DNA of 64,000 nt from Bacteroidota bacterium (GTDB lineage Bacteria; Bacteroidota; Bacteroidia; Bacteroidales; FEN-979), in the NCBI GenBank assembly GCA_026391835.1, contig JAPLDF010000067.1, positions 48,120 to 112,119 on the forward strand, given 5' to 3'. Below are positions 10,447 to 62,707 of the stretch, one piece after another. The notes under the pieces are model-generated. The model was not told the DNA's origin, did not search any database, and saw only the letters and a program-made list of their open reading frames with translations. Position numbers and translations under genes: made by a program. Numbering within the stretch: position 1 is the first letter of the stretch; every line of letters starts with the position of its first letter.

Positions 10447-10526
10447 TAACAGGTAACGGGTAACCTGTTCCCTGTCACCTGTCACTTGTCACTTGTCACT
10501 TGTCACTTGTCACTTGTCACTTGTCA
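10447..10526. repeat. 7-bp tandem array (CTTGTCA x6, CCTGTCA x2, CCTGTTC) with a short inverted arm (TAACAGG, TAACGGG)
   Basis: Units in register 10464-10526; the last TCA is the rfaD TGA stop. Confidence 0.95.
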
Positions 10527-11546
10527 ATAACATGTCCCTTCCACAAGATACCCCTGCACATACTCTGCAATGGCGGTTTCGAGTGTGTAAAAAGGTTTTG
10601 TATAACCTGCCGCCCGGAGTTTCCCCATCTTCGCCTCTGTGAAATACTGGTATTTGTCGCGGATATCGGCCGGCGTATCGATGAACTCAATGGTGGGAGG
10701 CAGATTGAGTGCCGAAAAAACTGCATTGACCAAATCGAGAAAAGTCCGGGCTTTCCCGGTTCCCAGGTTGTAAATACCACTTTGAACCTTGTTTTCCATC
10801 AGGAAGTAGAGCACGTCAATAACATCCTTCACATAGATAAAGTCGCGCAACTGCTCCCCGTCCCGGTAAGCCGGGCTGTGCGACCTGAACAACCGGACCT
10901 TACCGCCTGTCCGCCCGTCCGCCTGTCCGCCCGTCCGCCCGTCCGCCTGTCCGCCCGTCCGCCCGTCCGCCTGGTTAAAAGCATGGAACACCACCGAAGC
11001 CATCCTCCCTTTGTGATATTCGTTGGGTCCGAACACGTTGAAGAATTTCAGGCCATACCATCGCTGCGGGGTTTTTGTTTGTTGCAGGGCCCATATGTCG
11101 AATTCATTTTTTGAGATGCCATACGGGTTGAGGGGCTTAAGGCTGTTGCTCAGGCTGTCATTCATGTCGTCATAGCCCAGGGAACCGTCTCCGTATGTGG
11201 CGGCAGAAGATGCATAGATCATTGGGATGCCATATTCGCAGCAGGCATTCCAAACCTGTTTCGAGTAGTTAAGGTTCAATTCATCGAATACTGCCATGTT
11301 GAATTCTGTGGTGTTGGTTCGCGCCCCGATGTGAAAAATAAATTCCACCTCCCCGGCATGTTCGGCGAGCCACGGAAAAAACCGGGTGCGGTCAACTTTC
11401 CCGGAATAAATTTTCCTGGCAATATTCACCTGCTTCACGGGGTTCGAAAAATCATCCACGATGACAATGTCCTTGTATCCCTTGTTGTTGAGTTTGCCAA
11501 CCATGCAACTCCCGATGAATCCTGCGGCTCCTGTGACGATGACCAT
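10524..11546 (-). CDS. rfaD: ADP-L-glycero-D-manno-heptose 6-epimerase
   Basis: VTGAAGFIGS Rossmann motif, YASSAATYG, PLNPYGISK, FNVFGPNEYHKGRMASV, RDFIYVKD. Confidence 0.95.
   Translation of the reverse strand: MVIVTGAAGFIGSCMVGKLNNKGYKDIVIVDDFSNPVKQVNIARKIYSGKVDRTRFFPWLAEHAGEVEFIFHIGARTNTTEFNMAVFDELNLNYSKQVWNACCEYGIPMIYASSAATYGDGSLGYDDMNDSLSNSLKPLNPYGISKNEFDIWALQQTKTPQRWYGLKFFNVFGPNEYHKGRMASVVFHAFNQADGRTGGQADGRTGGQADGRTGGKVRLFRSHSPAYRDGEQLRDFIYVKDVIDVLYFLMENKVQSGIYNLGTGKARTFLDLVNAVFSALNLPPTIEFIDTPADIRDKYQYFTEAKMGKLRAAGYTKPFYTLETAIAEYVQGYLVEGTCY
10903..10974. repeat. 8-bp tandem array (CCGCCYGT x9) in frame within rfaD
   Basis: Nine units = 72 bp, encoding (QADGRTGG)x3. Confidence 0.95.
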
Positions 11547-11570
11547 GTTTCGCGAATTTGAATCTTTTCA

Positions 11571-11578
11571 CAAAAATA
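11571..11578 (-). promoter_or_regulatory. TAnnTTTG -7 box for rfaD
   Basis: TATTTTTG ~25 bp upstream of the ATG. Confidence 0.6.
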
Positions 11579-11735
11579 AACAATCTATAGGGAAATTGTA
11601 ACGGTTTATTTTTTTCTGACTACTTTTACAACCCGGTTTTATCAATATCATTCTTAATACCATGTTTCGGGGATTGTCTGCAAATATTTCTATTGATCGG
11701 ATCATTAATTTCAACAACATAAATAACAATAACTT

Positions 11736-12362
11736 ATGAAAAAATCACCAATCATGCACGGTTTACGGATCACCGTTGCCCTGTTTATCAGTTTGTCTAT
11801 TCTCCCAATGTTGATCCAGGCACAGGATAAAGGTACCTTCAAGGATGCCCGTGACGGCCATGTTTACAACTGGGTGAAAATTGGAACCCAGGTGTGGATG
11901 ACAACAAACATGAAATTCAATGTCCCTGCCGAAAGCTGGGCTTACAACAATGATTCCGCCACTGAAGCGCATTATGGGAAGCTCTATTCATGGAAGGGAG
12001 CCCAGGCCTCCTGCCCGAAAGGCTGGCACCTGCCCTCAGATAAAGAATGGACTACCGCCATCCAGTCACTGGGTGGAGCAAATGGCGCAGGTACCAGGTT
12101 GCAATCGATGGACACGGTTACTAATGCGCCCGTTGCTGCCGGTTCGGCTGTTCCGGGGCACATTTCTTCTTTGCTGGGAGGCGTAAGGCATCCTGACGGT
12201 TCCTGCATCGGGATCAATTCCTGGGGCGGCTGCTGGACCTCGGCAAAAGTGAACGACACTGTTGCCACCAATGTCCTGTTTGCCCATGGTTCCAAGGAAA
12301 TCGGCATCAGTACCAATGATAAAAAATCAGGATTTTCTGTCAGGTGTGTCAGGAATAAGTAA
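11736..12362 (+). CDS. FISUMP (Fibrobacter succinogenes major paralogous) domain protein
   Basis: Signal peptide; DARDGHVYNWVKIGTQVWM, YGKLYSW, CPKGWHLPSDKEW, GFSVRCVR. Confidence 0.9.
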   Translation: MKKSPIMHGLRITVALFISLSILPMLIQAQDKGTFKDARDGHVYNWVKIGTQVWMTTNMKFNVPAESWAYNNDSATEAHYGKLYSWKGAQASCPKGWHLPSDKEWTTAIQSLGGANGAGTRLQSMDTVTNAPVAAGSAVPGHISSLLGGVRHPDGSCIGINSWGGCWTSAKVNDTVATNVLFAHGSKEIGISTNDKKSGFSVRCVRNK

Positions 12363-12381
12363 CTATAATTGATCCAGTCTT

Positions 12382-22802: not shown

Positions 22803-22837
22803 CTTTGCATTTTGATCCTGCATTTTGCATCTTGCAT
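22803..22837. repeat. Degenerate 7-bp array (TTTGCAT-like x5)
   Basis: tttgcat tttgatc ctgcat tttgcat cttgcat between mqnE and thiF. Confidence 0.6.
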
Positions 22838-22855
22838 TTATAGAACTACCGCCCA

Positions 22856-23652: not shown

Positions 23653-23671
23653 CCCTCCCTGTTATCCCTTA

Positions 23672-49783: not shown

Positions 49784-49840
49784 GTTTGTCAAATCGCATC
49801 GTATTAAAAATGATACAACACCTTAAAAAGAAAATACACA

Positions 49841-50239
49841 ATGAAAGGATTTAAAAGCAACATCGAAAAAGATACACTTGAAAATAACTATTTCCGGAAA
49901 GTGCTTTACACAGGCAAGCATCTTCAACTGGTACTCATGAGCCTCAAGGCAGGTGAAGATATTGGTGCGGAAGTACATCTCAACAATGACCAGTTTTTCA
50001 GGTTTGAAAGTGGTTCGGGGAAATGTGTCATTGATGGAAATGAATATGCCGTGCAGGATGGCGACATAATTATTGTGCCGGCCGGCGCCAGACATAATGT
50101 TATCAATACCGGGGCCGTAAAGGAATTGAAAATGTATACGATTTATGGCCCGCCCAACCACCAGGACGGCACGATCAGGGAAACGAAGGAAGATGCACAG
50201 AAAAGGGATGAAGAATTTGACGGCAAAACAAGCGAATAA
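49841..50239 (+). CDS. Cupin domain protein
   Basis: FRKVLYTG, EDIGAEVH..NDQFFR, VPAGARHNV, YGPPNH. Confidence 0.92.
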   Translation: MKGFKSNIEKDTLENNYFRKVLYTGKHLQLVLMSLKAGEDIGAEVHLNNDQFFRFESGSGKCVIDGNEYAVQDGDIIIVPAGARHNVINTGAVKELKMYTIYGPPNHQDGTIRETKEDAQKRDEEFDGKTSE

Positions 50240-50496
50240 CTGCTCAAATCCTGCGGTTGGCAACCTCTGTTGGAGCAAATTACCGCTCTGCACGACGCGC
50301 GAAATCAAAACGGGATTTTGTCAATAAATTAAAAATAGTTGAGGAAGAGACTGTTGAAATACTTAATTGGCTTGGATTGATTCAACGGTCAGGAAAAATA
50401 AAGCCTGAGAAATTGCAGGACCTGGTGAATGAAGCAACCGAATTGCCGGCAATATTTATGCGAGCATTAAAACGGCTAAGTTGGATACCGGGGTAA
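50236..50496 (+). pseudogene. 5'-truncated four-helix-bundle protein (23S rRNA IVP/TIGR02436-like)
   Basis: ITAQILRLATSVGANYRSARRAKSKRDFVNKLKIVEEE..E...WL...L..EA.EL; first helix and start codon missing. Confidence 0.82.
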
Positions 50497-50551
50497 AAGT
50501 ACGAAGTACAAAGTCATTTGTACTTCGTCATTCGTACCTCGTACCTCGCGG
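50496..50551. repeat. Inverted pair of 7-bp arrays (RAAGTAC / YTYGTAC) forming a hairpin
   Basis: aaagtac gaagtac aaagtca tttgtac ttcgtca ttcgtac ctcgtac; perfect 12-bp stem 50501-50512/50517-50528. Confidence 0.85.
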
Positions 50552-50592
50552 TATACCGCACTAAATGTCCGAAGTCAGAAAATAGCTGGTTC

Positions 50593-51123
50593 CTATTCGG
50601 GAATGTTGTACAACTTGCAGATCTCTTTGTAGGACATGCTTTGCAACTCCTCCTTGCTCCTGTACCCGGGTGCACCTGATTTTAAGGCAGGGATGGTGCC
50701 GGGGATGGCAATAAACCGGAACCTGTTGCCGGAGGTGAGCGGCGGCGCAAACATGTCGCAGTTGAATTCAATGCTTCCGTACTGGTGGATCAGAAAGTCC
50801 CAGTTTGCACCCACGGCATAAGCCGGAAGGGGGCGCACCGAAGACCCTTCGTATACGTCATTGGCCAGCCATGCATAGGCCAGTACCACACCGCCCTCAA
50901 CAATATCCTGGGTGAGATCGGGGGCAGTGGCTGCGAAAAACCAGTCGCCTGAACCGCCCGACCATGAGGTGGGGGAGAACCATTCGGAATAGTAGACCGT
51001 GGCATTTTGCCCGGCAGGTCCCTGTGGCCCCTGTGGTCCCACTGGCCCTTCTTTATTGCATCCTGCAAACACAAAGGCCGAAATGGCGGCGAATAAAAAA
51101 AATGTCCTGATTGCTGTTTTCAT
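50593..51123 (-). CDS. Lipoprotein with short Gly-X-Y linker
   Basis: Lipobox FAGC, GPVGPQGPQGPAGQ, VYYSEW; TATTTTTG box at 51187-51194. Confidence 0.85.
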   Translation of the reverse strand: MKTAIRTFFLFAAISAFVFAGCNKEGPVGPQGPQGPAGQNATVYYSEWFSPTSWSGGSGDWFFAATAPDLTQDIVEGGVVLAYAWLANDVYEGSSVRPLPAYAVGANWDFLIHQYGSIEFNCDMFAPPLTSGNRFRFIAIPGTIPALKSGAPGYRSKEELQSMSYKEICKLYNIPE

Positions 51124-51340
51124 TTTATCGGATTTTTAAGGTTAATTAATTTTTATAAGGCGATGAGTTCATCCTTGTTTTCGGAGCAAAAATAAGACCA
51201 TTGTTCTTTAAAATTGTTACATAATTATTTATTACGCATTAAATTGTCAAAAAACAATCCTGAATAATCCTTCCTGGCTACACCCCGGATAGGCTAGCGT
51301 TTGTACACCGCGTCCTCTCCGAAAAATAATAAGCAGGCTA

Positions 51341-51773
51341 ATGCCACAAAGCCATTGTACTGGTTATGCTGGTAGTTCCGTGCATGTCATTAAAAACACA
51401 GCTTTCATTAAAATATGAAACCATATGCAAGACATGGATGGCAGATGCCATTGAAGCGCAAATGCACTTCCCCATTGATACAACAATGGTTGTTTTTTCA
51501 AGATCCTCTAAAGTTGATTCAAACGGTTATTCCGATTTGCGAATGACATTCAGCAAGAACGGTGATTATTCATCCATCTCCAAAAAAGGGAAACCATGAA
51601 CAGGGACCTCCAGGTGGGAATTTTCCAAAGATGAATCGAAGGTGACTATTATCAAAAAACACGGGAAACAGGAACAGTTCTCCATTCAAAGACTCAATCC
51701 GACTTACCTGGAACTGGCAATTAAAAAGAGAGGGATTAACATGGTGTTTAAAATGGTGCCGGAAAAAAAATAA
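51341..51773 (+). pseudogene. Degraded lipocalin-like secreted protein gene
   Basis: The frame of ORF 51366 continues past TGA 51597-51599 (TGTSRWEFSKDESKVTII...IQRLNPTYLELAI) to TAA 51773; the signal-like N-terminus is out of frame with ATG 51341. Confidence 0.55.
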
Positions 51774-51822
51774 ATCCTATTTATAGCAGCCTGCTCCAGG
51801 TGAATGCAAATTGACAGCAAAG

Positions 51823-51919
51823 CATTGCAGGGGTTAATCCCATTATGTAAAAAACCATTGGGGCTAAAGCCCAATGAACCTGATCAACCTTAAACAGTTG
51901 GCTAAAGCCAACTGCAATG
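51823..51919. mobile_element. Non-autonomous multi-hairpin (GGCTAAAGCC) REP/MITE-like element, copy 1
   Basis: CATTGCAG...CTGCAATG ends; hairpins GGGCTAAAGCCC and CAGTTGGCTAAAGCCAACTG; 28 bp identical (inverted) to 62847-62874. Confidence 0.7.
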
Positions 51920-52052
51920 GATGAGAGAGATGCATTATTTCGTCCTGTCCGGGACGAAATGGCTAATCGAACTTCTAATAAAGCTATATTTACGCGTTAT
52001 TAAACGGAAAATATCCGGGCAGTCATTTCTTATGCTTACAAAGGAGGGAAAA

Positions 52053-53390
52053 ATGAATTATTTAATGAAAACATCCAGTTTGGCTGTTGTTGTGATTCTG
52101 GCATGTGCGTTTTGTTCGTTCAAACAACCAGGTTCAGAAATCCCTGTTAATCCGGCGACTGATCCTTTCTCCAATGGGGGCAGCGAAAGGAACATGATAG
52201 TTGTCATAAGCGATTTGCATCTTGGCGCCAACCTTGCGTATGCAGAGATTAACAGGAACTGCAGCATTCTTGTAAAGCTGCTGCAACAGGTCAGCGCAGC
52301 ACGAAATGTAAAGGAACTCGTCATCGCGGGGGACCTGCTTGACGAATGGTTTGTGCCGGCAACCATCAATACCTACGACGGCAAGGACCAGCATGATTTT
52401 GTTCAGCGGATCGCTGCAACCAACCAGGATGTGTTCGATGCGTTTAACAGGATAATCCGGGAAGGGAAGATAGCTGTTACTTATGTGCCGGGAAATCATG
52501 ACTTAAGCATCACTGCCGAAAATGTTGCCGGCATTCTTCCCGGGATAAACCAGGCCCGTGATAATATGCAGGGCCTGGGGACATATTCACCTGCCGGAAA
52601 TCCCCGGATAGCAATTGAACATGGGCACCGCTATAATTTTTTCTGTGCGCCGGATCCGATCTCAAACCAGGACATAGCCCCCGGAACCATCATGCCCCCG
52701 GGATACTTTTTTACGAGAATCGCGGCACTCCATGTAATGCAACACAATCCGGCACCGGGCGAAGCCGTGGCGGTTGTCACCCCCAATCCTGCGGGCGGCG
52801 TAAGCCAGAACATGTTGTATGCTTACTGGAGTTTATGGAAATGGGCAATCAAATTGATGTCCATCGAAAATAAGCTGGATGAGAAAATCATCGTTACCAA
52901 TGTTGGTGGTTTCACCGGGGCCTGTGCAGTCAATGACTTGCTGCCATTCCAGTTGACAACCGGTGGGGATCTCGATGTGAAGCTTTATAAGGGAATCCAG
53001 GACACCTGGGACCAGAGGCAAACGATCAACAAGGTGGCTGTGAAAATCCCGGTTATGTCGGCCATTGTGAATGCAGCTTCCGATACCGCCATTGACAACC
53101 AGGCCAAGGTGCAATATTTCATGAACCCGAATTCCAACACGCGTATCGTAGTGTTCGGGCATACACACGTTGCTAAAATGACCTCGTCGGCGAACTGCAA
53201 GGGCCAAAAGTCAATCTATGTGAATTCCGGAACCTGGATCGATAACAATAATAGCAGCCCGGGCATTTCATGCACATTTGTTGTCATCACACCTCCGAAG
53301 ACCGGTACGCATGCCGAAACCCGGGTGAAACTATATAATTTCAACAATTCAGTGATGACAGAAATGGCACAGGACTCACTGCGCTATTGA
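52053..53390 (+). CDS. Secreted calcineurin-like metallophosphoesterase
   Basis: SDLH, GDLLD, GNHD, EHGH, GHTH; hydrophobic N-terminus; start 52053 or 52065. Confidence 0.88.
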   Translation: MNYLMKTSSLAVVVILACAFCSFKQPGSEIPVNPATDPFSNGGSERNMIVVISDLHLGANLAYAEINRNCSILVKLLQQVSAARNVKELVIAGDLLDEWFVPATINTYDGKDQHDFVQRIAATNQDVFDAFNRIIREGKIAVTYVPGNHDLSITAENVAGILPGINQARDNMQGLGTYSPAGNPRIAIEHGHRYNFFCAPDPISNQDIAPGTIMPPGYFFTRIAALHVMQHNPAPGEAVAVVTPNPAGGVSQNMLYAYWSLWKWAIKLMSIENKLDEKIIVTNVGGFTGACAVNDLLPFQLTTGGDLDVKLYKGIQDTWDQRQTINKVAVKIPVMSAIVNAASDTAIDNQAKVQYFMNPNSNTRIVVFGHTHVAKMTSSANCKGQKSIYVNSGTWIDNNNSSPGISCTFVVITPPKTGTHAETRVKLYNFNNSVMTEMAQDSLRY

Positions 53391-53445
53391 CCATTGCCTG
53401 TCATCCTACTTCCTGGCAAACAGATTCTGCCCGTGGATTCCCCAT

Positions 53446-53847
53446 TCATGGTTTCCGGTCCTGTTTATACTTTTCCATCAAGGCAATAAGATCAACCCGG
53501 GCGCAATCATCAAGCAATTCCCTGACAATATCCAAAGGCATTTCTTCTGCTTTTTTAAAATTAATGCAACCTTTCTGGAATTTAGCTTTGTTTAAAAGGT
53601 TTTTATACGTGGCATGAAGTGCCGGTGATGCATAAATTGGCATTAAATGCAACGAAAAATGGCTTTTGGTGATTGACAATCCATATTTAAAAAAACCTTT
53701 GGTTTTATAGAGGATCATTTCAATTCCCATCATTAACCCGATCTCAGCCGTTACATTTTTGTCGGCATTCACGATGATGTCATTTATTTCTGTAAGGATC
53801 AACCTGTTTTCAGGAGATTGTTCTGATAAAAATTCTGTTACTGTCAT
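53446..53847 (-). CDS. DUF1801 (YdhG-like) protein
   Basis: 133 aa; KSHFSLHLMPIY, KGCINFKK. Confidence 0.7.
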   Translation of the reverse strand: MTVTEFLSEQSPENRLILTEINDIIVNADKNVTAEIGLMMGIEMILYKTKGFFKYGLSITKSHFSLHLMPIYASPALHATYKNLLNKAKFQKGCINFKKAEEMPLDIVRELLDDCARVDLIALMEKYKQDRKP

Positions 53848-53933
53848 AAGATATCTGTTTATATAATTTGGTCTGCGGTTTTCTCAAGAATCCCGGAATG
53901 TAAAATTATAATAAAAACAGTATCGTCCTGATA

Positions 53934-53971
53934 GTGGAAAAACCGGAACCTCAGGCCACGCTTTGCCGGTT
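53934..53971 (+). mobile_element. Isolated IS21-like terminal sequence
   Basis: 31/38 identity to 58368-58405 (GTGGAAAAACCGGA...CCAC...TGCCGGTT). Confidence 0.55.
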
Positions 53972-53995
53972 CAGGCTCAGACTGCGGCCTCATCT

Positions 53996-54619
53996 TTATT
54001 CTGAAATGTGTGAATCCTGTAAGTATTTATCAACGTTATGTAACTCTTCAGAGGGAGAGGAAACTTGTAACTTTATAATGCTGTCGTTTACTGAATCAGG
54101 TTTGACTGCTTTTTTTATGTTTACGACCTGTATTTTTGTGGGTACTTTTTCGATTTTAAAGAATTGGTTTGTAAAGAGCAGAACTATTGAAAACAGTAAA
54201 GCCACGGTGGTCAGCCTGACTGCGACAATATACTGTTTATTGCCTTTTTCGGTGATTATTTTATTTTGTCTGTACGACAGGGTGTTTGCCCCGATTTCAC
54301 TTAAAAGGATCTCTTTATAGGTTTTGGTCAATGATCCCTGGTACTTTTCGACATTATAAGCCTGGTCGAGCGGTTTTGTCTTAAAGATGTCCAGCATTAA
54401 AAGGATCGCCCAAATAAAAAGCGCTATCGGAATAACCGAAATCAGCTGAATTACCTGGAAAGTCCCCACAAGGCTGCTCAGGAAAAAAGGGATGAACAAG
54501 GCTGTTACGCCAATAATTGTCCCGGCATACGAATGTTGCTGCCGATATGAATCTACCTGCTTTTCAACAATTTCTTTTGAATTGACCGCAAAGAATTCCA
54601 GGTGGCGTAAGTCTTCCAT
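53996..54619 (-). CDS. Hypothetical membrane protein (3 TM)
   Basis: 207-aa AT-rich ORF with three hydrophobic segments. Confidence 0.7.
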   Translation of the reverse strand: MEDLRHLEFFAVNSKEIVEKQVDSYRQQHSYAGTIIGVTALFIPFFLSSLVGTFQVIQLISVIPIALFIWAILLMLDIFKTKPLDQAYNVEKYQGSLTKTYKEILLSEIGANTLSYRQNKIITEKGNKQYIVAVRLTTVALLFSIVLLFTNQFFKIEKVPTKIQVVNIKKAVKPDSVNDSIIKLQVSSPSEELHNVDKYLQDSHISE

Positions 54620-54633
54620 TCCGTGTTTTATAA

Positions 54634-54769
54634 ATGAGGTTGTCTTAAATGCCTAATTTCACCGCTAAGACGCTAAGACGCGAAAAATGACATTGCTGAT
54701 TTTTTAATTCTTTGCGCCTTAGCGTCTTCGCGGTAATGATGACAATTCAGACTTTTGAGGTAACCTCAT
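54634..54769. mobile_element. MITE-like element: outer inverted repeats enclosing inverted 8-bp arrays
   Basis: ATGAGGTTGTCTTAAA ... TTTGAGGTAACCTCAT; inner arms 54661-54686 / 54709-54734 are 22/26 complementary (CGCTAAGA units). Confidence 0.65.
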
Positions 54770-54796
54770 CAGGAAAATCATGATTTAACCAATTGG

Positions 54797-55167
54797 CTAA
54801 TCATCGAAATAATAGTCAACTTCCAAATCGTTTTGTACGAACCATATGCCGGGAGTCTTCCAGGCAATCCGGCCGGCTTCGTCTTTCTGATACCAGGAAG
54901 GCACTGTTCCTGTAAGGGTCACCGTTGTTCCGGAAACTTTGACGCTGATGTCGTTATCATCTGCTGCCAGGCTTCTGCCGATGACTTTCTCAACATCTTT
55001 TTGTTCAATCTTGTCGTGTATTTCCGATTTGATTTTAATGTTGTTGGTTACCATACAACACTGTCTTTTGCTGTAACCCCGATTTCTGCCGCATTCAACA
55101 ACGACTCCCGTTTGATGGCGTTTTGAACGTCTGCCTGTAATTCTGCATTGGTTTTAATTATCAACAT
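54797..55167 (-). pseudogene. BON-domain protein with internal deletion and frameshift
   Basis: KTNAELQADVQNAIKRESLLNAAEIGVTAKDSVV joined out of frame at ~55054 to VTNNIKIK...VTLTGTVPSWYQKDEAGRIAWKTPG. Confidence 0.82.
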
Positions 55168-55367
55168 TTTATAATTGTGAAAATATTGACATAACGTCAC
55201 AAAAGTATTTCCATTCGCTGGCTAAACCCTTACGCAATTGTTGAAATGATTTACATGATTCACACATTTTCGCTTGTCCACCTTCCGGCTTTTGTTAAAA
55301 AACTACCTGAACCTTGTTTAAGGACCAGGCCGGGAGCGGAAATTGTGTCATTTGGCAGGATGCAATG

Positions 55368-56855
55368 TCAATTTATGCGCTTTCCAGTGCCGCTGTTGAA
55401 TCTTATCTCAAATTCAACCGAATCGGGGAGTATGTCCTTTTCCGGAAATTTAAACCGCCAGTCCTGGTCCGGAACCAGGAACTCAGTTTCACTTACCGGG
55501 TATAGCTTATATGATTTACCATCGTCATTAAAGTATAAACCATCGGATTTTTGTACAAAATCAAATGTATACTCCTTGTTTCCTTCCAGCAACGCCTTGA
55601 AAGTTCCCGCATATTTTGACAGCACCGATGATGGAACCTCAACTGTTTTTATTGTTGCAGGCTTAAAATAAGGCCAGCCATACGCTGTTGCCAGGCTTCT
55701 GTAAATCTCCTGGATCAGCATATACCCGTTGTTTGAATTGGTCATGATGACAACGCCATTTCCTGTTTTTAAATAGCTGTATACATCACAAATGTACCCC
55801 TCATTCCATCCGCCATAAGCCAAAGCAAGGCTGTCGCCATTGTTTTTCAATACAATTCCGAGGGCCATATCGCCCCTGTATCTTTTGAGCATTTTACGGC
55901 TGGTTTCAGGACGGATGATTTTACCGGGTTCCCCGAGGTAAGACTTTTCAAGTTCAATCATCATCCTGGCATAGTCCATGGATGTGGTCCATAACCCTGC
56001 TGCTGCTTTTTCAGGATAAATATGGTAACCGCCACCGACCATTTTCCCGTCTTCCTTATATGCTTTTGCGATCGATTTTTGTTGTTTTTTCGTTAAATTA
56101 TGTTCAAATGTGCTGTTGCTGAGGTTCAGGGGGTCAAAGAGATCATCCTTCATCAACTTCGGAAAAGATTTACCGGATACCTCCTCCATCAGAAGTTGAA
56201 GTACTGTATAACCTCCGCCTGAATAGCTCCATTTTGAACCCGGGACCAGTACCACTTTTACGGCTTCCGTATTTGATGGAGATGTACCATTCAGGATGTC
56301 TTTTACACCAGGAATGGAATCATATTTGGAGTAACCGGGGAAAGAAGGAACATTCAATCCACCTAAATGGAGCATCAGCAATCCTGGTGTGACAGCTCTT
56401 TGCCTGGTAAATTCGTTTTCAGGCAAATGCCATGTTTTCAACTGCTGGTTGATGTCCTGTTCCAGGTTGATTTTTTTCTCTTCTTCGAGTTTTAAAGCAA
56501 TCATTGCAGTGACCGGCTTGCTCATGGAGGCGGCCTGGAACATCGTATTCAAAGTGACGCTGTCATTTGTCCCTTTTTCTTTAACGCCATACGATTTGGC
56601 CCATTCGATCTGATGATCTTTCATTACTGCGATGCTCAGGCCGGGCACATCAAAATATTGCATTCTGTCCCTGATGGAAAACGTTTTGCACGGCTCTCCT
56701 GCGATGATGCCGGCAGGCAACAACCCGTTTTCAATTCTCAGGATACTTTCATTGATGGCCTGCGTACCTTTTCCTTTGTAAATGGTTTCTGGCTTGGGAT
56801 TGCAACTGAAAGTAATGAATGCTACAATACTCATCAGGAAATAAGATTTTTTCAT
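55368..56855 (-). CDS. Beta-lactamase/AmpC-family serine hydrolase lipoprotein
   Basis: Lipobox TFSC; FQAASMSK (SxxK), WSYSGGGY, AAAGLWTT, VVIMTNS. Confidence 0.9.
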   Translation of the reverse strand: MKKSYFLMSIVAFITFSCNPKPETIYKGKGTQAINESILRIENGLLPAGIIAGEPCKTFSIRDRMQYFDVPGLSIAVMKDHQIEWAKSYGVKEKGTNDSVTLNTMFQAASMSKPVTAMIALKLEEEKKINLEQDINQQLKTWHLPENEFTRQRAVTPGLLMLHLGGLNVPSFPGYSKYDSIPGVKDILNGTSPSNTEAVKVVLVPGSKWSYSGGGYTVLQLLMEEVSGKSFPKLMKDDLFDPLNLSNSTFEHNLTKKQQKSIAKAYKEDGKMVGGGYHIYPEKAAAGLWTTSMDYARMMIELEKSYLGEPGKIIRPETSRKMLKRYRGDMALGIVLKNNGDSLALAYGGWNEGYICDVYSYLKTGNGVVIMTNSNNGYMLIQEIYRSLATAYGWPYFKPATIKTVEVPSSVLSKYAGTFKALLEGNKEYTFDFVQKSDGLYFNDDGKSYKLYPVSETEFLVPDQDWRFKFPEKDILPDSVEFEIRFNSGTGKRIN

Positions 56856-56917
56856 TTCGTTTATAAGATTTTAAAATCTATGCAATGACGAACGGAAAAA
56901 CCAAACGTTGCAAAATG

Positions 56918-57044
56918 CCATGCTTCTCCATGCTTTCACCATGCTTTCACCATGCTTCTCCATGCTGTTACCATGCTTTTCCATGCTGTTACCATGCTTT
57001 TCCATCCTGTTCCCATGCTTTTCCATCCTATCACCATGGTTTTA
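56918..57044. repeat. CCATGCT-core tandem array, 12 units of 10 or 11 bp (21-bp higher-order period)
   Basis: Unit lengths 10,11,11,10,11,10,11,10,11,10,11,11. Confidence 0.93.
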
Positions 57045-57170
57045 CCGTTTATCCTCCATATAAGGCCCAAGTAAGGACCATGGTTCGTCCATGCTCAGAC
57101 TGTCATATAATTTAGATTTGCAGGTTCAACGGGTAAAACTCAATGAAAGGTTTTAGGAGCGTTGTTCAGG

Positions 57171-57274
57171 CGGGAAAAACGGAGCCTGTGACCATTCTCT
57201 TCCGATGTTTGCTGACCATCCTGTATTCTTAACAATCAACAAGGTGAGGTGGACAGATCGCTCCGGCGAAAACA
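57171..57274. mobile_element. IS21-end-like miniature element remnant
   Basis: TGACCA motifs 24 bp apart (57189, 57213); inverted GGTGGACA...CTCCGGCGAAAACA arm. Confidence 0.5.
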
Positions 57275-57494
57275 GGTTAAGGGGTGCGTTGTTTTCATAT
57301 GCCTGGCGTAGAAATTCGACGGGCTTTTTTATTTTTGCAGGTTACTATTGATATTATCATAGCTTTACAGATTACTGAATGCAACCACAACCAGTTGCGG
57401 TTATTCAATAGTTAAGCGTCATGCCTGGAAACCTCACCAGTGCTAACTTGAAACTGACTGGAAGAAGTTGACTTTGGAAATAAACTAAAACAAG

Positions 57495-58340
57495 ATGGAA
57501 CAACATTTAGAAGATATCCGTGAACAGCAAAAAGCATCATGGAATAAATTTTCTCCCGGCTGGAAAAAATGGGATGGCCTGAATATGGATTTATTAAAAC
57601 CAACGTGTGATGAAATCATAGGTTTAATTAATCCCAAAGGTGCAGATGTTGTGTTAGATATTGCAGCCGGAACAGGAGAACCCGGTTTAACAATTGCAAC
57701 CATGTTAAAGGGCGGGAAAGTTGTTATTACAGACCTTTCAGATGACATGCTGGAAATAGCCCGTGAAAATGCAATGAAAAGAGGAATTACAAACGTTGAA
57801 ACCCTTGCCTGCGATGTTAGCGAACTTCCTTTTACGGACAATACCTTTGATGCAATTAGTTGTCGTTTTGGTTTTATGTTTTTTCCAGACATGCTTTTAG
57901 CATCAAAAGAAATAGTTCGTGTTCTGAAACCCGGCGGAAAAATCGCTGCTTCTGTTTGGAATGTACCTGAAAATAATTTCTGGGTTACAGCTATTATGGG
58001 AACAATCAGTAGAAATATGGAATTGCCTGCACCTCTGCCAGGTTCCCCGGGAATGTTTCGTTGTGCTAAAGATGGTTTTATCTCCGGTTTATTTTTGCAG
58101 GCAGGATTGAAAAATATCAGGCAAAAGGAAATTGCAGGAAAAATGAACTTCAAAACAATTGATGTTTACTGGAGCATGATGACAGAAGTAGTTTCTCTTG
58201 TTGTTGCTGCTCTTAATAAAGCGGATGGTGACATGAAAAATAAAATTAAGAAAGAAGTTTATCAGGAGTTGAACCAAAAATATTCTGATGGAAATATTTT
58301 GATGGACTCAAGCGCTTTTGTAATTTATGGTGAGAAATAG
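57495..58340 (+). CDS. Class I SAM-dependent methyltransferase (UbiE/COQ5-like)
   Basis: VLDIAAGTGEP, LPFTDNTFD, RVLKPGG. Confidence 0.92.
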   Translation: MEQHLEDIREQQKASWNKFSPGWKKWDGLNMDLLKPTCDEIIGLINPKGADVVLDIAAGTGEPGLTIATMLKGGKVVITDLSDDMLEIARENAMKRGITNVETLACDVSELPFTDNTFDAISCRFGFMFFPDMLLASKEIVRVLKPGGKIAASVWNVPENNFWVTAIMGTISRNMELPAPLPGSPGMFRCAKDGFISGLFLQAGLKNIRQKEIAGKMNFKTIDVYWSMMTEVVSLVVAALNKADGDMKNKIKKEVYQELNQKYSDGNILMDSSAFVIYGEK

Positions 58341-58367
58341 GCTGATAAATTGTTGCATGCACGCATT

Positions 58368-58496
58368 GTGGAAAAACCGGAGTCACTGACCACCCTGTGC
58401 CGGTTTATCGATACCATTGTATTTGTCTGATAATTATTTATTTAAGGTGGTCAATTTAAAATGGCGGCAGGTGGACGTTGTGTTCGGCGTATCCAC
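58368..58496. mobile_element. IS21-derived MITE-like element (~127 bp)
   Basis: GTGGA...TCCAC ends; ~50-bp imperfect inverted arms, each with two TGACCACC-like motifs spaced 24 bp; no ORF. Confidence 0.6.
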
Positions 58497-58503
58497 GTAC
58501 TCC

Positions 58504-59436
58504 TTATCTCAATGTTTCGTAATGCTTTTTTACATCTTCTTTGTGCAGAGAGGCTGTGTATCTGGTATCACGATTTGAGGAGCTTTTTAAAAGATCATTA
58601 ATGTTCCCCTGGATCGTTCTTGCTGAGACTGGTTTTTTTCCTGCACAAATGATTTCCGCAACTTTTTTATACATTTCTGTTTTTGTTGCCGCAAACTCGG
58701 ATTGATAATAATGGATGAAGCCGAGGAAATCAAACATGGCAATTTTATAGGGAACATCATTTGAATAAACAAGCTTTATAAGTTCATCCTTTGATTGTTC
58801 GTTAAGTACACTGACTTTTGGTAGGTTCAGGAACCCATTTTCATACAATGCCAGTTTCAGTATTTCAAAGGATCCAATCGGAATATCGAACACTTGTCTC
58901 GGCAAATTCAAATTATTCAGTGATGGATATTGTATATTAATGGTGTCCGTGGGGAACCCAAGTTTCAGGCAAATATCAGTAAAGGGGATTTCATAGATAC
59001 CGCAGCATTTTTGCAATTCAGCAAAGAGCAAATGATACAGGATGTTACAGCCCTTCATGAACTTTAGATCATGGTCTGGGAGGTGTGAATTATCCAGTAC
59101 CAGTAAATTTCCAATCTTGTTTAACACAGGAGCACGATCGTTAATGCCTTTTTTAGAAAGGTTGGCATGTAAATCAGGCTTACTCGCTGTGAAGGACACA
59201 TGGTTTTTGGACTTCATCAACCTGGACACGTAGAGCTTGACGATGTCAGCCTTTTGTTCAACGGTAGTATTGACCACCAAATTGTTTTCAAGTTCATTGC
59301 CGAAGGGCTCAACAAAAAACTCAGCGATATTCTCCTCAGATTCCAGGAGGGTGGACTCTTGCGGGTGTCCCGGAGAAAGACGATCAACGGGCGTTTTCAG
59401 CAAATCAACACATTGGTCTAAGTAGGAATATTGCAT
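58504..59436 (-). CDS. Hypothetical protein
   Basis: 310-aa AT-rich ORF directly downstream of tRNA-Val; no motif recognised. Confidence 0.7.
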   Translation of the reverse strand: MQYSYLDQCVDLLKTPVDRLSPGHPQESTLLESEENIAEFFVEPFGNELENNLVVNTTVEQKADIVKLYVSRLMKSKNHVSFTASKPDLHANLSKKGINDRAPVLNKIGNLLVLDNSHLPDHDLKFMKGCNILYHLLFAELQKCCGIYEIPFTDICLKLGFPTDTINIQYPSLNNLNLPRQVFDIPIGSFEILKLALYENGFLNLPKVSVLNEQSKDELIKLVYSNDVPYKIAMFDFLGFIHYYQSEFAATKTEMYKKVAEIICAGKKPVSARTIQGNINDLLKSSSNRDTRYTASLHKEDVKKHYETLR

Positions 59437-59517
59437 TATGGGTTAAATTGTATTAAATTGAGTGCTTAGAAAAATGTGCGTTTTCGAATGTTCTGAGGTT
59501 ACATTTAGGGTTACATG

Positions 59518-59554
59518 AAAAAAGGGTTTCAGATTTTTATTCTCTGAAACCCTT
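59518..59554 (-). terminator. Intrinsic terminator after tRNA-Val
   Basis: AAGGGTTTCAG / CTGAAACCCTT stem with T-run on the minus strand. Confidence 0.75.
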
Positions 59555-59562
59555 GTCTTTGT

Positions 59563-59640
59563 TGGTGGGAGCAACAGGATTCGAACCTGTGACCCTCTGC
59601 TTGTAAGGCAGATGCTCTGAACCGGCTGAGCTATGCTCCC
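59563..59640 (-). tRNA. tRNA-Val (anticodon TAC)
   Basis: GGGAGCATAGCTCAGCCGGTTCAGAGCATCTGCC-TTACAA-GCAGAGGGTCACAGGTTCGAATCCTGTTGCTCCCACCA; cloverleaf, encoded CCA; TACATTTG promoter box upstream. Confidence 0.97.
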
Positions 59641-59716
59641 TCAATTGAGGGTGCAAATGTAAAAAGATTTCCCGGATATCCAAGCGCGTTCACAATGTTT
59701 CTGACAGTTAATTTTC

Positions 59717-59724
59717 TAATTTTG
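59717..59724 (+). promoter_or_regulatory. TAnnTTTG -7 box for the MFS gene
   Basis: TAATTTTGC, divergent from the tRNA promoter. Confidence 0.6.
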
Positions 59725-59777
59725 CACACGGGTTCGATCCCTGTTGCTACAAATATCGTTTTTACTGCCCCACTGCC

Positions 59778-60944
59778 ATGAATGACAAACTCTGGAACAG
59801 GGATTTTACCTTGCTCACCCTTTCCAATTTTTTGATGTGTTGCGCCTATTATTCACTGATCTCAACACTTCCCGTCTATATATCGCATGAGCTGCTTGCC
59901 CCCGAAAGCCTGGTCGGGCTGGTGATGGCCAGCTACGTGGTTGCAGCGATCCTGATCCGCCCGTTTTGCGGGTTCAGCCTCGACAAATATGGCAGAAAGG
60001 CAATTTTCCTGGCATCCCTGCTTATTTATGCCTTCACCTTCAATGGTTACCTCATTGCAACCTCCATCCTGATGATGACCGGGGTCCGCTTTGTGCATGG
60101 CATGACCTGGGGGCTGACCACCACCTCCAATTCAACCGTGGCCGGGGATATCATCCCTGGAAACAAAAGGGGAGAGGGCTTTGGCTACTTTGGCGTTTCG
60201 ACCACTGCCGGGATGGCCCTCGGACCCATGATCGGGGCGATCATCTTCCAGCATGGCGGTTATACGGCGATGTTCCTGGCAGGCTGCCTCATCAGCCTTG
60301 TCAGCATGGGGCTTGCCGCCCTGATCAGGTACCCGGCCTATTATATGCCAAAAGCAAATCTTGAATTCAAATGGAAGAACCTGGTTGAGACGAGCACCGT
60401 AATCCCCTCCCTCAATTTGCTGATCATCATGCTGACCTACGGCGGACTGATCTCCTTCGTTGCCCTGTTCGGGCATGAAATCGGCATCGGCAACCCGTCC
60501 GGTTTCTTCCTGATCTACGCCATCGGGATCATCAGTTCGAGGTTCGCCGTTGGAAAAGCCCTTGACCGCAACGGACCACGCATCATCATCATGTTCTGTC
60601 TTTCGCTGCTGATCATCGGGTTTCCGCTCCTTGCCCTCTGGCAAAACCAGGCAGGGTTTTTTACTGCCGCACTGATCCTCGGGTTTGGAAATGGCGTTGT
60701 ATTCCCAACCTTTCAAACCATGACAAACAACATGGTGCCTGCTTCCCGCCGGGGGGCAGCCAGCTCCACGCTGTTTATCGCAGTCGATATCGGGATGGGC
60801 CTGGGAATGATCCTCGTGGGTGTGATCGCCCAGTATTTCTCCATTTCAACGGCCTTCCTCGTATGTTCCGGTATCGGGGCGGCAGGGCTGGCCATGTTCC
60901 TGATCACTACGCTAAAGTACTACCAACACCATAAGAACAATTGA
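59778..60944 (+). CDS. MFS transporter
   Basis: KLWNRDF start, GFSLDKYGRK motif A, RGEGFGYFG, ~12 TM. Confidence 0.92.
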   Translation: MNDKLWNRDFTLLTLSNFLMCCAYYSLISTLPVYISHELLAPESLVGLVMASYVVAAILIRPFCGFSLDKYGRKAIFLASLLIYAFTFNGYLIATSILMMTGVRFVHGMTWGLTTTSNSTVAGDIIPGNKRGEGFGYFGVSTTAGMALGPMIGAIIFQHGGYTAMFLAGCLISLVSMGLAALIRYPAYYMPKANLEFKWKNLVETSTVIPSLNLLIIMLTYGGLISFVALFGHEIGIGNPSGFFLIYAIGIISSRFAVGKALDRNGPRIIIMFCLSLLIIGFPLLALWQNQAGFFTAALILGFGNGVVFPTFQTMTNNMVPASRRGAASSTLFIAVDIGMGLGMILVGVIAQYFSISTAFLVCSGIGAAGLAMFLITTLKYYQHHKNN

Positions 60945-61044
60945 TTTACGAATTACGATTTACGATTTTCGATTGAGTGCTAAAATGACGATCACGGATC
61001 AGCAACCGCCAATCGTAAATCCAAAATCGTAAATCGTAAATCCC
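60942..61044. repeat. Inverted pair of 7-bp arrays (CGATTTA-like x5 ... AAATCGT-like x5)
   Basis: Left arm begins with the MFS TGA stop; right arm ends just before the stop of the convergent gene. Confidence 0.92.
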
Positions 61045-61045
61045 C

Positions 61046-61501
61046 TTATTTTGGAAGACGCCCAAAAAACCTTTTCAGGTTCCTGTGAAATTTATGAAAC
61101 CCCGTCACGGGATCGGCATACATCAGGATGCACTCCCCGGTGACCAGGTTTCCTGTGTAGCCCTTTGTTAATTCAAGGGTTTCGGGCGTATCGGACATCT
61201 GCTGGATCCAGATGTTTTTGATCCCGCCTGCCATGGCTTCGGCCACAACCTCCCTGGTCTGTTTTTTCCCCGTAACGATGATTAAACTTTGAGTCCCGGG
61301 GGGTAAAGCGCTAACGCTGCGGAAACAGGGGGTGCCTGCAATGTCATCCGTTCCGGGGTTGATCGGAAGGACTTCAAATCCTTTCTCCTTGAGCTGTTTG
61401 AAAACGACGTGTCCAAACTTTTTCGGGTCCCTTGAAACACCCGCGATGGCGATGCTGTGCGCCGAAAGAAAGGAGTCAATGGATGCTTTGGTTGCTTTCA
61501 T
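61046..61501 (-). CDS. CoA-binding protein (YccU-like)
   Basis: IAIAGVSRDPKKFG, PINP, IWIQ, GECILM. Confidence 0.9.
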   Translation of the reverse strand: MKATKASIDSFLSAHSIAIAGVSRDPKKFGHVVFKQLKEKGFEVLPINPGTDDIAGTPCFRSVSALPPGTQSLIIVTGKKQTREVVAEAMAGGIKNIWIQQMSDTPETLELTKGYTGNLVTGECILMYADPVTGFHKFHRNLKRFFGRLPK

Positions 61502-62445
61502 GGTTTGTTTTTTAGGTTGTTGCCAAACTCAGGCGAAATATAGTTGTCAAGGCCCAGGCATACATCGGCAGAAAAACGGATGGCCGATTCAATAAGGCAA
61601 TCCAGCAGCCATGCAGGCAGGGTACCGGGCATTGGCAGCATGGAAGTTCCCGGCAGGGTGGTTGCCGCATGGATGATCCCTGCATTGAAGGCGTCACCAG
61701 CCCCGATGGTGCTTACCGGCTCTATCTGGGGTACGCGATATGTTGTGGCCACCCCGTCCTGAATTACCTCGACACCCTTACTGCTCTTTGTATAAACCAG
61801 CAGGGGGCACCCTGCCTCATGCACATGGCGGAATGCTTGCTGTGCATCGGGCGCGTTGAAAATATTTTTGAAGTCTTCATCCGACCCCCGCACCAGGTTG
61901 GCCATGCCCATGTTCTCCATGATCCATGGCCTGACGGTTTCGAGTTCACCGAGGTGGGCGCTCCTGAAGTTCGGGTCATAGATGATAAATGCCCCACCGG
62001 CTTTTGCAGCCCGGACGAATCCCGTTATTTTTGAACGGAGAGAATTCGTGATGGCGTAAATGGAGCCGAACAGAACAATATCACCGGGTTCCACCCCGGG
62101 AAAGGGGCAGATGAGCCGTTCTTCGGGCAGTATCTTGTAGAAAGAATAATCCGCGTTTTTCTGCTGATCGAGAAAAGCCAGGGCAAGCGACGTTTTGCCG
62201 TTGCTGTAACGGCTGACATATTCGGTAGATACGCCATTGTTTGATAAAAACTCCTGGATGATATTCCCGGGATGGTCGGTGCCGAAATCACTTATAAAGA
62301 AGACCTTTGTTCCCGCCCTGCCGAGCGACACGGCAGAATTAAGCATCGAGCCGCCGGGGGTGGCCGACAAGGGCTGATCCTCCCTGAAAATGATGTCGAG
62401 AACCGTCTCCCCGATACAAAATACCCTGCCGGCTTCTTTAGTCAT
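61498..62445 (-). CDS. PfkB family carbohydrate kinase (fructokinase-like)
   Basis: IGETVLD, PGGSMLN, YDPNFR, STIGAGDAFNAG. Confidence 0.92.
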   Translation of the reverse strand: MTKEAGRVFCIGETVLDIIFREDQPLSATPGGSMLNSAVSLGRAGTKVFFISDFGTDHPGNIIQEFLSNNGVSTEYVSRYSNGKTSLALAFLDQQKNADYSFYKILPEERLICPFPGVEPGDIVLFGSIYAITNSLRSKITGFVRAAKAGGAFIIYDPNFRSAHLGELETVRPWIMENMGMANLVRGSDEDFKNIFNAPDAQQAFRHVHEAGCPLLVYTKSSKGVEVIQDGVATTYRVPQIEPVSTIGAGDAFNAGIIHAATTLPGTSMLPMPGTLPAWLLDCLIESAIRFSADVCLGLDNYISPEFGNNLKNKP

Positions 62446-62527
62446 TTGGTATGTTCATGTGATAGGATTTATTTTTTTGGCCATATGGAAAATCCGGAAT
62501 TTAGTCCAGTCCGAAAGGTGTTTATTA

Positions 62528-62707
62528 GTCACAAAGTCACAAAGTCACAAAGTCACAAAGTCACAAGGTCACAAAGTCACAAGGTCACAAAGTCACAAGG
62601 TCACAAAGTCACAAAGTCACAAGGTCAAAAGGTCACAAGGTTTCACCAGGCTTATACTGCAGATATACACTGCTTTGTGCATCTTTGTGTTTTGGTGTCC
62701 TGGTGGC
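62528..62707. repeat. 8-bp tandem array (GTCACAAR x14) with a degenerate inverted arm
   Basis: 14 units 62528-62639; CTTTGTGC..CTTTGTGT TTTGGTGT CCTGGTGGC at 62673-62707. Confidence 0.95.

Follow-up and report, generated by a model that had tools for sequence, protein, structure and literature searches.

Dispersed 7- and 8-bp tandem arrays in a Bacteroidota genome and their association with small-gene cassettes of the TIGR02436 and TIGR04256 families

To our knowledge, dispersed arrays of tandem heptamers have long been known in cyanobacteria and were later found in many bacteria, with no agreement on their origin or function. The class called short tandemly repeated repetitive sequences (STRR) was reportedly first described by Mazel in 1990. 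Here, we analyzed such arrays in a stretch of 64 kb, hereafter the window (positions 48,120 to 112,119 of contig JAPLDF010000067.1, or C41, of a 5.35-Mb, 86-contig Bacteroidota genome), which contains six arrays of 7-bp and three of 8-bp units. These nine arrays and their units, listed in an original prediction made from the letters of the window alone, were recovered with Tandem Repeats Finder and by reading, and the gene names given there also held (epimerase, FolC, plug of the type IX secretion system (T9SS), Omp85, MFS and a four-helix gene). We found that arrays of this kind flank, as inverted arms, small genes of two families: TIGR02436 (PF05635), the 23S-rRNA-intervening-sequence / Avd-like four-helix-bundle family, and TIGR04256 (GxxExxY, PF13366), which has a PD-(D/E)XK fold. 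Both families are annotated in thousands of genomes. Heptamer arrays are now tied to these two widespread but uncharacterized families, the "four helix bundle protein" and the "GxxExxY protein". With somewhat better than even confidence, we regard the nine arrays as ordinary members of a population of about 600, and as arm material of hairpin-armed selfish small-gene cassettes.

Several described systems resemble what we observed. The arrays have in common with STRR and with long simple sequence repeats (LSSR), whose survey is summarized in PMC4679880, tandem heptamer (5–11 nt) units, many mostly intergenic loci, a small number of units in any one genome and copy numbers that vary. Indeed, short units stand head to tail above chance in this genome, and the same unit is found at many unlinked, mainly intergenic loci. 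The descriptions of STRR and LSSR treat the arrays alone, whereas here paired inverted arms surround two gene families and are gained and lost at an orthologous site; moreover, the 8-bp class is here tied to one protein clade, and our cyanobacterial data are seven plasmid loci. Direct repeats of the heptamer TAACTGA were described in marine Beggiatoaceae, Cyanobacteria and five Bacteroidetes (MacGregor 2015, PMC4679880). According to the passages of that study that concern us, they are likewise intergenic and patchy over the same phyla, and several heptamer kinds occur in some Bacteroidetes spacers. However, the study deals with one unit, mostly in 2–6 copies just upstream of start codons, for which translational regulation was proposed, and the same passages make no mention of inverted arms or of PF05635/PF13366 genes.

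A second resemblance is with the intervening sequence (IVS) of 23S rRNA. As described in the relevant sections of Warrier 2016 (PMC4990558), a 28-bp stem encloses the loop that contains the S23p open reading frame (ORF), 2–4 tandem GACAGAT heptamers, which vary from strain to strain, stand in the 5' part of the IVS, and the 5' cut of RNase III in the stem falls at the first heptamer repeat; the element was called selfish and horizontally acquired. Like the IVS, the cassettes reported here have an ORF of the PF05635/TIGR02436 family within terminal inverted repeats that are able to form a stem. They differ in that the IVS sits within a 23S rRNA helix, whereas the cassettes that we examined lie between protein-coding genes and have arms of up to hundreds of bases, with a unit that differs from copy to copy and gene-less arms that far outnumber the genes. 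Repetitive extragenic palindromic (REP) sequences, their paired forms (REPINs) and miniature inverted-repeat transposable elements (MITEs) are also dispersed intergenic inverted repeats, often between convergent genes, and one family of the present genome, CGCNAAGA, fits this description. In contrast, most hairpins here have unique loops and arms of tandem units, and no transposase was identified, none having been searched for. Lastly, Avd of diversity-generating retroelements (DGRs) belongs to a homologous four-helix-bundle fold family (cd16375 / PF05635), as stated in the part of PMC10053308 that treats it, but no reverse transcriptase, template repeat or variable repeat adjoins the genes here, which sets them apart from the DGR arrangement of an Avd-like gene beside these three. 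Dispersed heptamer arrays (STRR, LSSR), heptamers in Bacteroidetes spacers and the IVS case are already in print. For a general link of such arrays to TIGR02436/PF05635 or TIGR04256/PF13366 genes, we found no printed account beyond the IVS paper in a full-text search that left most subscription journals and supplements outside, and a prior mention may exist.

In this genome, genes were called crudely, as long ORFs filtered by codon usage (n = 3557; 86% of the genome is coding by these calls). Profiles matched 14 TIGR02436 and 8 TIGR04256 genes. A 7/8-bp array was present within 150 bp on both sides of 9 of the 14 TIGR02436 matches, vs 98 of the 3557 crude genes (odds ratio 64, p = 2.5e-11), and four further matches had an array on one side. 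Inverted arms of one unit enclosed 7/14 TIGR02436 matches and 9/3557 crude genes, and the GxxExxY genes were flanked by inverted 8–10-bp repeats. The association with both families that had been predicted was thus found to be strong. The remaining genes between inverted arms of one unit were ordinary host genes, by eye PdxJ-like, PabA-like and DNA-alkylation-repair-like. Two subfamilies stood out among the TIGR02436 genes: subfamily A (four genes, 48–56% identical) had 8-bp arms in all four cases, and subfamily B (seven genes, 34–72% identical) had 7-bp arms in six cases and 8-bp arms around one pseudogene. Each TIGR02436 copy had a repeat unit of its own. A full cassette consists of a 100–140-aa gene of either family between inverted arrays of one unit; because the arms are the same unit inverted, a transcript or a single strand can close a long stem around the gene. 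Folding a cassette RNA closed the arms around the gene (z = -5.2). In the wider survey of species described below, 83 loci had arrays on both sides, and 68 of these had an arm duplex below -20 kcal/mol, and the mean was -30.2 kcal/mol for a locus's own arms vs -11.4 when arms were paired across loci.

The cassette of contig C72 (G000:C72:160293-160799) lets presence, absence and decay be compared. From left to right, it has a host gene, (ATTTACG)6.6, a minus-strand TIGR02436 gene, (AAATCGT)4.6 and a second host gene, RecQ-like by eye. We compared it in 40 genomes of the same genus, of which 32 have both host genes on one contig. The empty, array-only and array–gene–array alleles that the original prediction had envisaged do exist at this one site. 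The spacer was filled in 14 genomes (500–670 bp), empty in 11 (13–36 bp, no array), and contained a single array only in 2, (AATCGTM)x7 in 57 bp and (AATGACA)x3 in 35 bp. The other five spacers were decayed or different: four of 105–380 bp had no intact gene, one of them with a decayed 57-aa remnant, and one was 2438 bp long. In a tree of the flanks, 6 of the 29 branches were well supported, and these force at least three changes at the site. The basal group had six empty alleles and one other; the group of 25 held all filled alleles together with five empty, two array-only and four other ones. One gain followed by several losses would be the simplest reading of this distribution.

Filled alleles had five distinct left-arm units, or six with that of L328, which was read by eye. 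As a matter of fact, the right arm was in each case the complement of the left. The pairs were GATTTAC/AAATCGT, GATATAC/ATATCGT, GACAAGT/ACTTGTC, CCAATGA/TCATTGG, CGATGTN/ACATCGA and GAATGAC/GTCATTC, and the mismatches numbered 0–2 within an allele, whereas of 132 pairs crossed between alleles 55 had at least 3. Complementarity of the two arms persists through changes of unit. In addition, in one filled allele (L327, genome G165) the four-helix gene present in the other 13 is replaced by a TIGR04256 gene (134 bits). The leader sequence beside its right (near) arm is unchanged and 23-bp repeats stand on the far side. Cargo was swapped at this site between the two gene families, and since the TIGR04256 gene of L327 lies behind the same leader, two families can occupy one chassis. 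A block, 'aaaaagtaNtaYgtttgttaataa', is found beside the right arm in all filled alleles (L301-L312; e.g. L085:1040-1068). It contains on the plus strand a TAnnTTTG, which we take to be the Bacteroidetes -7 promoter motif, and might serve to express the host gene downstream, which the cassette parts from its upstream neighbor.

The array–gene–array layout is spread across phyla. We scanned one genome per species with alignments of subfamilies A and B and took the best 80 loci of each. Short-period arrays were present within 700 bp, mostly directly beside the gene, at 71/80 subfamily-A and 66/80 subfamily-B relatives (137/160). These loci came from Bacteroidota, Verrucomicrobiota, Planctomycetota, Chloroflexota, Pseudomonadota, Nitrospirota, Thermodesulfobacteriota, Patescibacteria-type phyla and others. 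Subfamily-B genes of several phyla had a common unit, with (ATTTACG)n upstream and (AAATCGT)n downstream. As for subfamily A, the arms were of 8 bp in 23 of 34 Bacteroidota loci and mostly of 7 bp elsewhere. Thirty loci were drawn via L239 and counted as Bacteroidota; by reading, about 20 had 7/8-bp arrays beside the gene. L239 is titled picocyanobacterium, and its "phylum" draw coincides with Bacteroidota genomes, so that the bin or the label is doubtful. Arms can be very long, as seen at L125 (Vreelandella sedimenti), where (GGTGAGT)x15, as a 14-mer, lies upstream and (ACTCACA)x94, or 658 bp, downstream. Among TIGR04256 loci of the class, 14 of 28 (a count that leaves out one locus from an unpublished genome) had 8–10-bp repeats on both sides and 6 on one side, typical arms being CACAGAGNN upstream and CTCTGTGNN downstream. 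In the class sample, one unpublished genome included, TIGR02436 was found in 97/121 genomes and TIGR04256 in 78/121.

Named plasmids carry the layout as well. Thirty-one plasmid records encode a subfamily-B relative, 16 of them from Nostoc, and all eight loci that we inspected (three of Nostoc and one each of Planktothrix, Gloeocapsa, Dolichospermum, Pseudanabaena and Chlorohelix, seven of the eight being cyanobacterial) were flanked by arrays on either side, with heptamer units at seven loci and a 14-mer at the eighth. Plasmid cassettes often lay between genes of defense operons. On four plasmids (L389, L390, L392, L394), four-helix genes with heptamer arms stood among defense genes, the neighbors being DrmD and MmeI in Planktothrix, DUF1156 and Swt1-HEPN in Gloeocapsa and Chlorohelix, and cas1 in Pseudanabaena. 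A phage collection gave one weak, unannotated match to a subfamily-B protein.

We then considered the arrays at the scale of the genome, irrespective of genes. There were 760 arrays of at least 3 copies and a score of at least 40, including 395 of period 7 and 209 of period 8, vs none at these thresholds after a first-order-Markov shuffle of the whole genome. At least 4 copies and a score of at least 50 were reached by 500 arrays, 249 of period 7 and 165 of period 8, with every other period at 20 or fewer. The predicted genome-wide excess of periods 7 and 8 was borne out (414/500 vs 0 in the shuffle). The 7/8-bp population amounts to about 600 arrays (612 counted), or 0.55% of the genome, and the window is typical of the genome because its density equals the average (7 arrays vs 7.3 expected). 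Locations were intergenic for 399 of the 612, across a gene 3' end for 98, across a 5' end for 29 and inside an ORF call for 86. A few units recurred at unlinked loci, again as predicted: AAATCGT was the commonest (82 arrays; the window array at 44726 has the same unit family), followed by ACRGGCGG (ACAGGCGG plus ACGGGCGG, 66 arrays), AAGTGAC (52) and AACACTT (24).

A possibility was that each long simple-sequence repeat arose at its own site by plain replication slippage, and that the small genes happen to lie in array-rich spacers. Heptanucleotides were reported to be the commonest class of long simple sequence repeats in most prokaryotic genomes, and polymerase slippage was proposed for them (Mrazek 2007, in the summary of PMC4679880). 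The spacers orthologous to two window arrays also speak for it, in that unit and period differ between species at one and the same place. In eight genomes of the genus, the thiF-side spacer (orthologous to array 22804) carried GATTTTR and ACTTTGT units in two relatives, was empty (13 bp) in one and array-free in the rest; the spacers between thiS and folC comprised one (GTGTCAC)x5, one 8-mer array, two with about 1.5 CCGCCTGT units, three array-free ones and one gene overlap. Against slippage alone, however, hundreds of unlinked arrays are built from a handful of units, AAATCGT flanks subfamily-B genes in several phyla, flanking by arrays is 64-fold more frequent at TIGR02436 genes than at the rest, and the two arms of a locus resemble each other much more closely than arms taken from different loci and keep their complementarity through unit change. 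The sharing of units by cassette arms and dispersed arrays already indicates more than independent origin. We therefore find it unlikely that slippage is the whole explanation, and very likely that arrays and cassettes are one phenomenon.

The original prediction had also invoked a dedicated process that writes the repeats. In that case, a reverse transcriptase, a primase or a telomerase-like activity would synthesize repeats at gene ends. Such an activity would account for the period and unit vocabulary common to unlinked sites and for the joint change of unit in both arms at the C72 site, and one of the gene families is related to the accessory protein of a retroelement. Yet no such process was found: the two RVT_1 matches of the genome lie on contigs C1 and C32, neither of which has a TIGR02436 match or a cassette, the arrays drift and decay like ordinary DNA, and no data here require templated synthesis. 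We consider a writing activity very improbable.

Pairs of arrays also occur around no gene at all. Pairs of one unit within 1.5 kb were inverted in 90 cases vs direct in 41; 54 of the inverted pairs had gaps of 10–80 bp and no direct pair had one under 40 bp. When partners of at least 2 units within 160 bp were counted, about 100 of the 612 arrays had an inverted partner, vs 12 with a direct partner and 24–28 for foreign units. Polarity was fixed within a unit family, as seen in 17/17 (ATTTACG)n...(AAATCGT)n hairpins and in 5/5, 5/5 and 6/6 hairpins of three other families. The arms were mostly A+T-rich, and the two of a pair had a common consensus unit without being exact palindromes. In the window, the original prediction had counted an inverted second arm at five of the nine arrays. 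Such arms do exist, but at four: they are clear for 60943 (14/14 bases) and 54663 (14/16), degenerate for 62527 (12/16) and 50496 (11/14), and there is none for the other five. The hairpin at 60943-61043, located between convergent MFS and CoA-ligase-like genes, folds as RNA with -35.7 kcal/mol (z = -6.9). Twelve genomes, including this one, are syntenic at its site, and 5 had a hairpin, 5 were empty (22–47 bp) and 2 had other sequence. Four of the hairpins had the window's unit and one had AAATGAC; the arms were kept and the loops were not alignable.

These hairpins could be mobile at the DNA level, that is, MITE- or REP-like hairpins moved in trans by a hairpin-recognizing transposase, with the genes as passengers. 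The fixed polarity of the unit families is what such elements would show, and the CGCNAAGA family is REP/MITE-like: it has 16 gene-less copies, in either orientation, with partly conserved loops of 27–39 bp, including 54661-54735 of the window, and at one locus (C12:336803-337428) the same arms enclose a TIGR04256 gene. Outside this family, however, the near-identical copies, internal sequence included, that define MITEs and REPs were not seen; all other loops were unique, which argues that the hairpins are not copies of one element. Moreover, no target-site duplication was seen when filled and empty alleles of the C72 site were compared by eye. Movement in trans by a transposase seems improbable to us.

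We come back to the cassettes as the source of the arrays. Their arms would lengthen, shorten and homogenize by replication slippage, and the gene-less hairpins and solitary arrays would be relatives of cassette arms, either leftovers or arm-only copies spreading alone. Several observations weigh against this derivation. Of the 612 arrays, only 21 have a TIGR02436 or TIGR04256 match within 500 bp, and most are solitary, as slippage would also have it. Few arrays being near a cassette gene and few having an inverted partner, most are tied to cassettes by shared units alone, and for AAGTGAC and AACACTT, with their 52 and 24 arrays, this genome has no cassette with such arms. Conversely, one TIGR02436 match (C63:93956) has no arrays. 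When the loops of 31 gene-less hairpins were compared with four-helix proteins, 3 were significant, all known cassettes, and the rest were at chance level, controls matching four-helix proteins just as rarely. None of the 12 genomes syntenic at the MFS hairpin has a gene there, and at neither spacer of the thiF–thiS region was there a gene in the eight genomes compared, in which units and periods differ. The single-gain history of the C72 site is itself not proven because the flank tree is weak. The order of variant units, lastly, was not mirrored between arms (7/96 pairs with p <= 0.05; z positive in 44 and negative in 38), a point that slippage also accommodates. Hence, the proposal that the arrays are footprints of genes that come and go stood as regards the array–gene–array layout, seen at 9/14 TIGR02436 genes, but was not borne out for most arrays: 21/612 are near a gene, about 100/612 are partnered, and the loops contain no recognizable remnants. 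Whether most solitary arrays derive from arms rather than from independent slippage is, in our opinion, an even call.

What the arms may do is suggested by the IVS. By analogy with the S23p-bearing IVS of 23S rRNA, they would pair in RNA and would be cut, which would free the cassette from host transcripts and make insertion in or between operons harmless. Duplex energies, including G-U pairs, showed no preference for the gene strand (42 vs 40), so that RNA-level and DNA-level pairing are indistinguishable. We put forward processing of the RNase III type as a tentative role for the arms, a little short of an even chance.

Another possibility was that the proteins read the repeats, each four-helix paralogue binding its own unit, as DNA or RNA, with the flanking arrays autoregulatory and the dispersed arrays as targets. 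Avd, to which the family is related, binds nucleic acid. Most major units have a paralogue (AAATCGT on C72, ACRGGCGG on C82, GGGTRAAC on C22, AGGGTAAC on C39, AAAATGC on C61, GATTTCG on C12), and the structures available for relatives of these subfamilies, 2GSC and 2RLD, are of uncharacterized proteins, each with five chains of one sequence. The relation to Avd of DGRs is documented in the part of PMC10053308 mentioned above. In addition, period follows protein clade: on a tree of the proteins of 126 genes, 10 changes suffice for the period label '8', vs a mean of 24.1 in shuffles, and none of 500 shuffles was as low. This last result is, however, also expected from simple co-inheritance of gene and arms. 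Furthermore, genes of an unrelated fold (GxxExxY, PD-(D/E)XK) have arms of this kind too and can even occupy an identical site, and this genome has no cognate gene for its AAGTGAC and AACACTT arrays. Overall, such a code, whose targets might serve e.g. in termination, RNA stability or nucleoid structure, appears unlikely. A bolder variant, to which we likewise give little credence, is that proteins and arrays form one system, in which each four-helix paralogue would recognize its own 7-/8-nt unit and help to create, copy or home arrays, while the GxxExxY nuclease would cut for its own family. If this were true, dispersed arrays, including the cyanobacterial STRR, would be products of a protein-guided, repeat-propagating element rather than of passive slippage.

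We also examined the relation of arrays to stop codons, to which they had been proposed to be anchored. Five of the six 7-bp arrays of the window do touch or contain a stop codon. On the minus strand, the final unit of an array contains the TGA stop of HldD/rfaD (10524-10526) in one case and the stop of FolC (23746-23748) in another; the stops of the T9SS plug (44724-44726) and of Omp85 (44763-44765) touch opposite ends of the array between them; the MFS stop (60942-60944) shares 2 nt with the first unit of array 60943, and that of the four-helix remnant (50494-50496) shares 1 nt with array 50496. Genome-wide, array density was about 0.95 per kb in spacers facing at least one 3' end vs 0.46 between two 5' ends. 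Array edges facing a 3' end were within 5 bp of the stop in 37% of cases vs 20% for random placement in the same spacer, and by the same measure the values were 18% vs 14% for edges facing a 5' end.

Most units have a stop triplet (TAA, TAG or TGA) on one strand only. Since a period of 7 or 8 presents each trinucleotide in three frames, a unit with such a triplet closes all frames, and an array that reaches the last codons of a gene therefore supplies the stop itself; the same point, that ORFs must terminate at a repeat with stops in all frames, was made for TAACTGA (MacGregor 2015, PMC4679880, in the passages on that repeat). In spacers of co-directional genes, the stop-bearing strand faced the upstream gene in 105 vs 62 cases for 7-mers and 41 vs 30 for 8-mers. 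FolC offers an example. Locus L299 of the same genus has no thiS–folC spacer, and FolC there extends into thiS by an additional 3 residues; in the present genome, the terminal TGA of the array ends FolC. In the case of the epimerase, the proteins of relatives end at the same residue, which indicates that the array abuts an ancestral stop. Conversely, the ACRGGCGG units, stop-free on both strands, are those found in frame inside genes. Specific anchoring thus did not stand up: the preference is 37% vs 20% for random placement, some arrays lie in frame inside genes, and the rest follows from stop triplets. Stop overlap looks like the outcome of where arrays are tolerated, together with the stop triplets of the units, rather than of targeting.

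The features of the window are collected in Table 1.

Table 1. Positions of arrays, hairpins and adjoining genes in the 64-kb window
Feature	Position	Strand	Description
GGTAAC-type short hairpin	10447-10472		precedes the (GTGACAA)n array
Period-7 array, 7.7 copies	10473-10526	minus	unit (GTGACAA)n, directly after the heptose epimerase gene
ADP-glyceromanno-heptose 6-epimerase (HldD/rfaD)	10524-11546	minus	
Period-8 array, 8.6 copies, ~72 bp	10903-10973	minus	ACRGGCGG on the coding strand, in frame inside heptose epimerase
Period-7 array (TTTGCAT)n, 5.3 copies	22804-22839	+	between CofH/MqnE-like radical-SAM gene and thiF
Period-7 array, ~11 drifting units	23671-23748	minus	between thiS and convergent folC
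FolC	23746-25149	minus	
T9SS plug	43437-44726	+	
Period-7 array (AAATCGY)n, 5.6 copies	44726-44764	+	fills the spacer of the convergent T9SS-plug and Omp85 genes
Omp85	44763-47114	minus	
Truncated TIGR02436 four-helix-bundle gene	50221-50496	+	91 aa, 63 bits vs cut-off 24
Right-hand arm region of remnant cassette	50496-50548		two weak period-7 runs, 2.7 + 2.4 copies
Period-8 gene-less hairpin of the CGCNAAGA family	54661-54735		weak, 2.4 copies at 54663-54681, ~28-bp loop, inverted units
MFS	59778-60944	+	
Period-7 gene-less hairpin	60943-61043		(GATTTAC)4.6 at 60943-60974, 36-bp loop, (AAATCGT)4.7 at 61011-61043
Period-8 array (AGTCACAA)14	62527-62638		degenerate inverted arm at 62670-62700 after ~30 bp

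In the truncated TIGR02436 gene, about 22 N-terminal profile positions are missing, as is the left arm beside it, and the gene is 72% identical to a paralogue on contig C13. On its right-hand side, (AAGTACR)n is immediately followed by the inverted (GTACYTC)n, forming a small hairpin, and its nearest paralogues (C13, C47) have (AAGTACG)x9.3 on the same side. Units related to AGTCACAA flank subfamily-A four-helix genes at other loci. The unit of array 23671-23748 drifts from ATTCGTC to ATTTGTC and then to ACTTGTC, and array 22804 begins 7 nt past the stop of the radical-SAM gene. In all window arrays the units are contiguous, which differs from the unique spacers between repeats of CRISPR arrays. 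Rfam gave no family matching the arrays, its sole match in the window being a tRNA.

Array 10903-10973 adds (QADGRTGG)x3 to a loop of the heptose epimerase, and TIGR02197 matches this protein in two stretches around the insertion. Among eight aligned relatives, three had other, partly similar insertions in this loop and five had none. In-frame arrays of this kind may be a source of variable protein loops. On contig C24 (G000:C24:3936-4763), a heptamer array of the AAATCGT type is translated in frame as SIVNRKSSIVNRKS within a host protein that is YdcF-like by eye.

The arrays account for some practical nuisances, since assemblies break at them and they reshape gene ends and protein loops. When assembled contigs of four DNA runs were compared with positions 44000-63000, breaks and raised word depth were seen at arrays (e.g. 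44634-45267, 62386-63000). Some contigs joined across parts of arrays (50498 to 50534 or 50541; 60974 to 61011), from which we drew no conclusion, repeat joints in metagenome contigs being unreliable. Incidentally, we noticed at 56918-57046 a tandem array of another kind, absent from the original prediction, of period 11 or 21 (about 12 or 5.5 copies) and with the unit CCATGCTTTCA.

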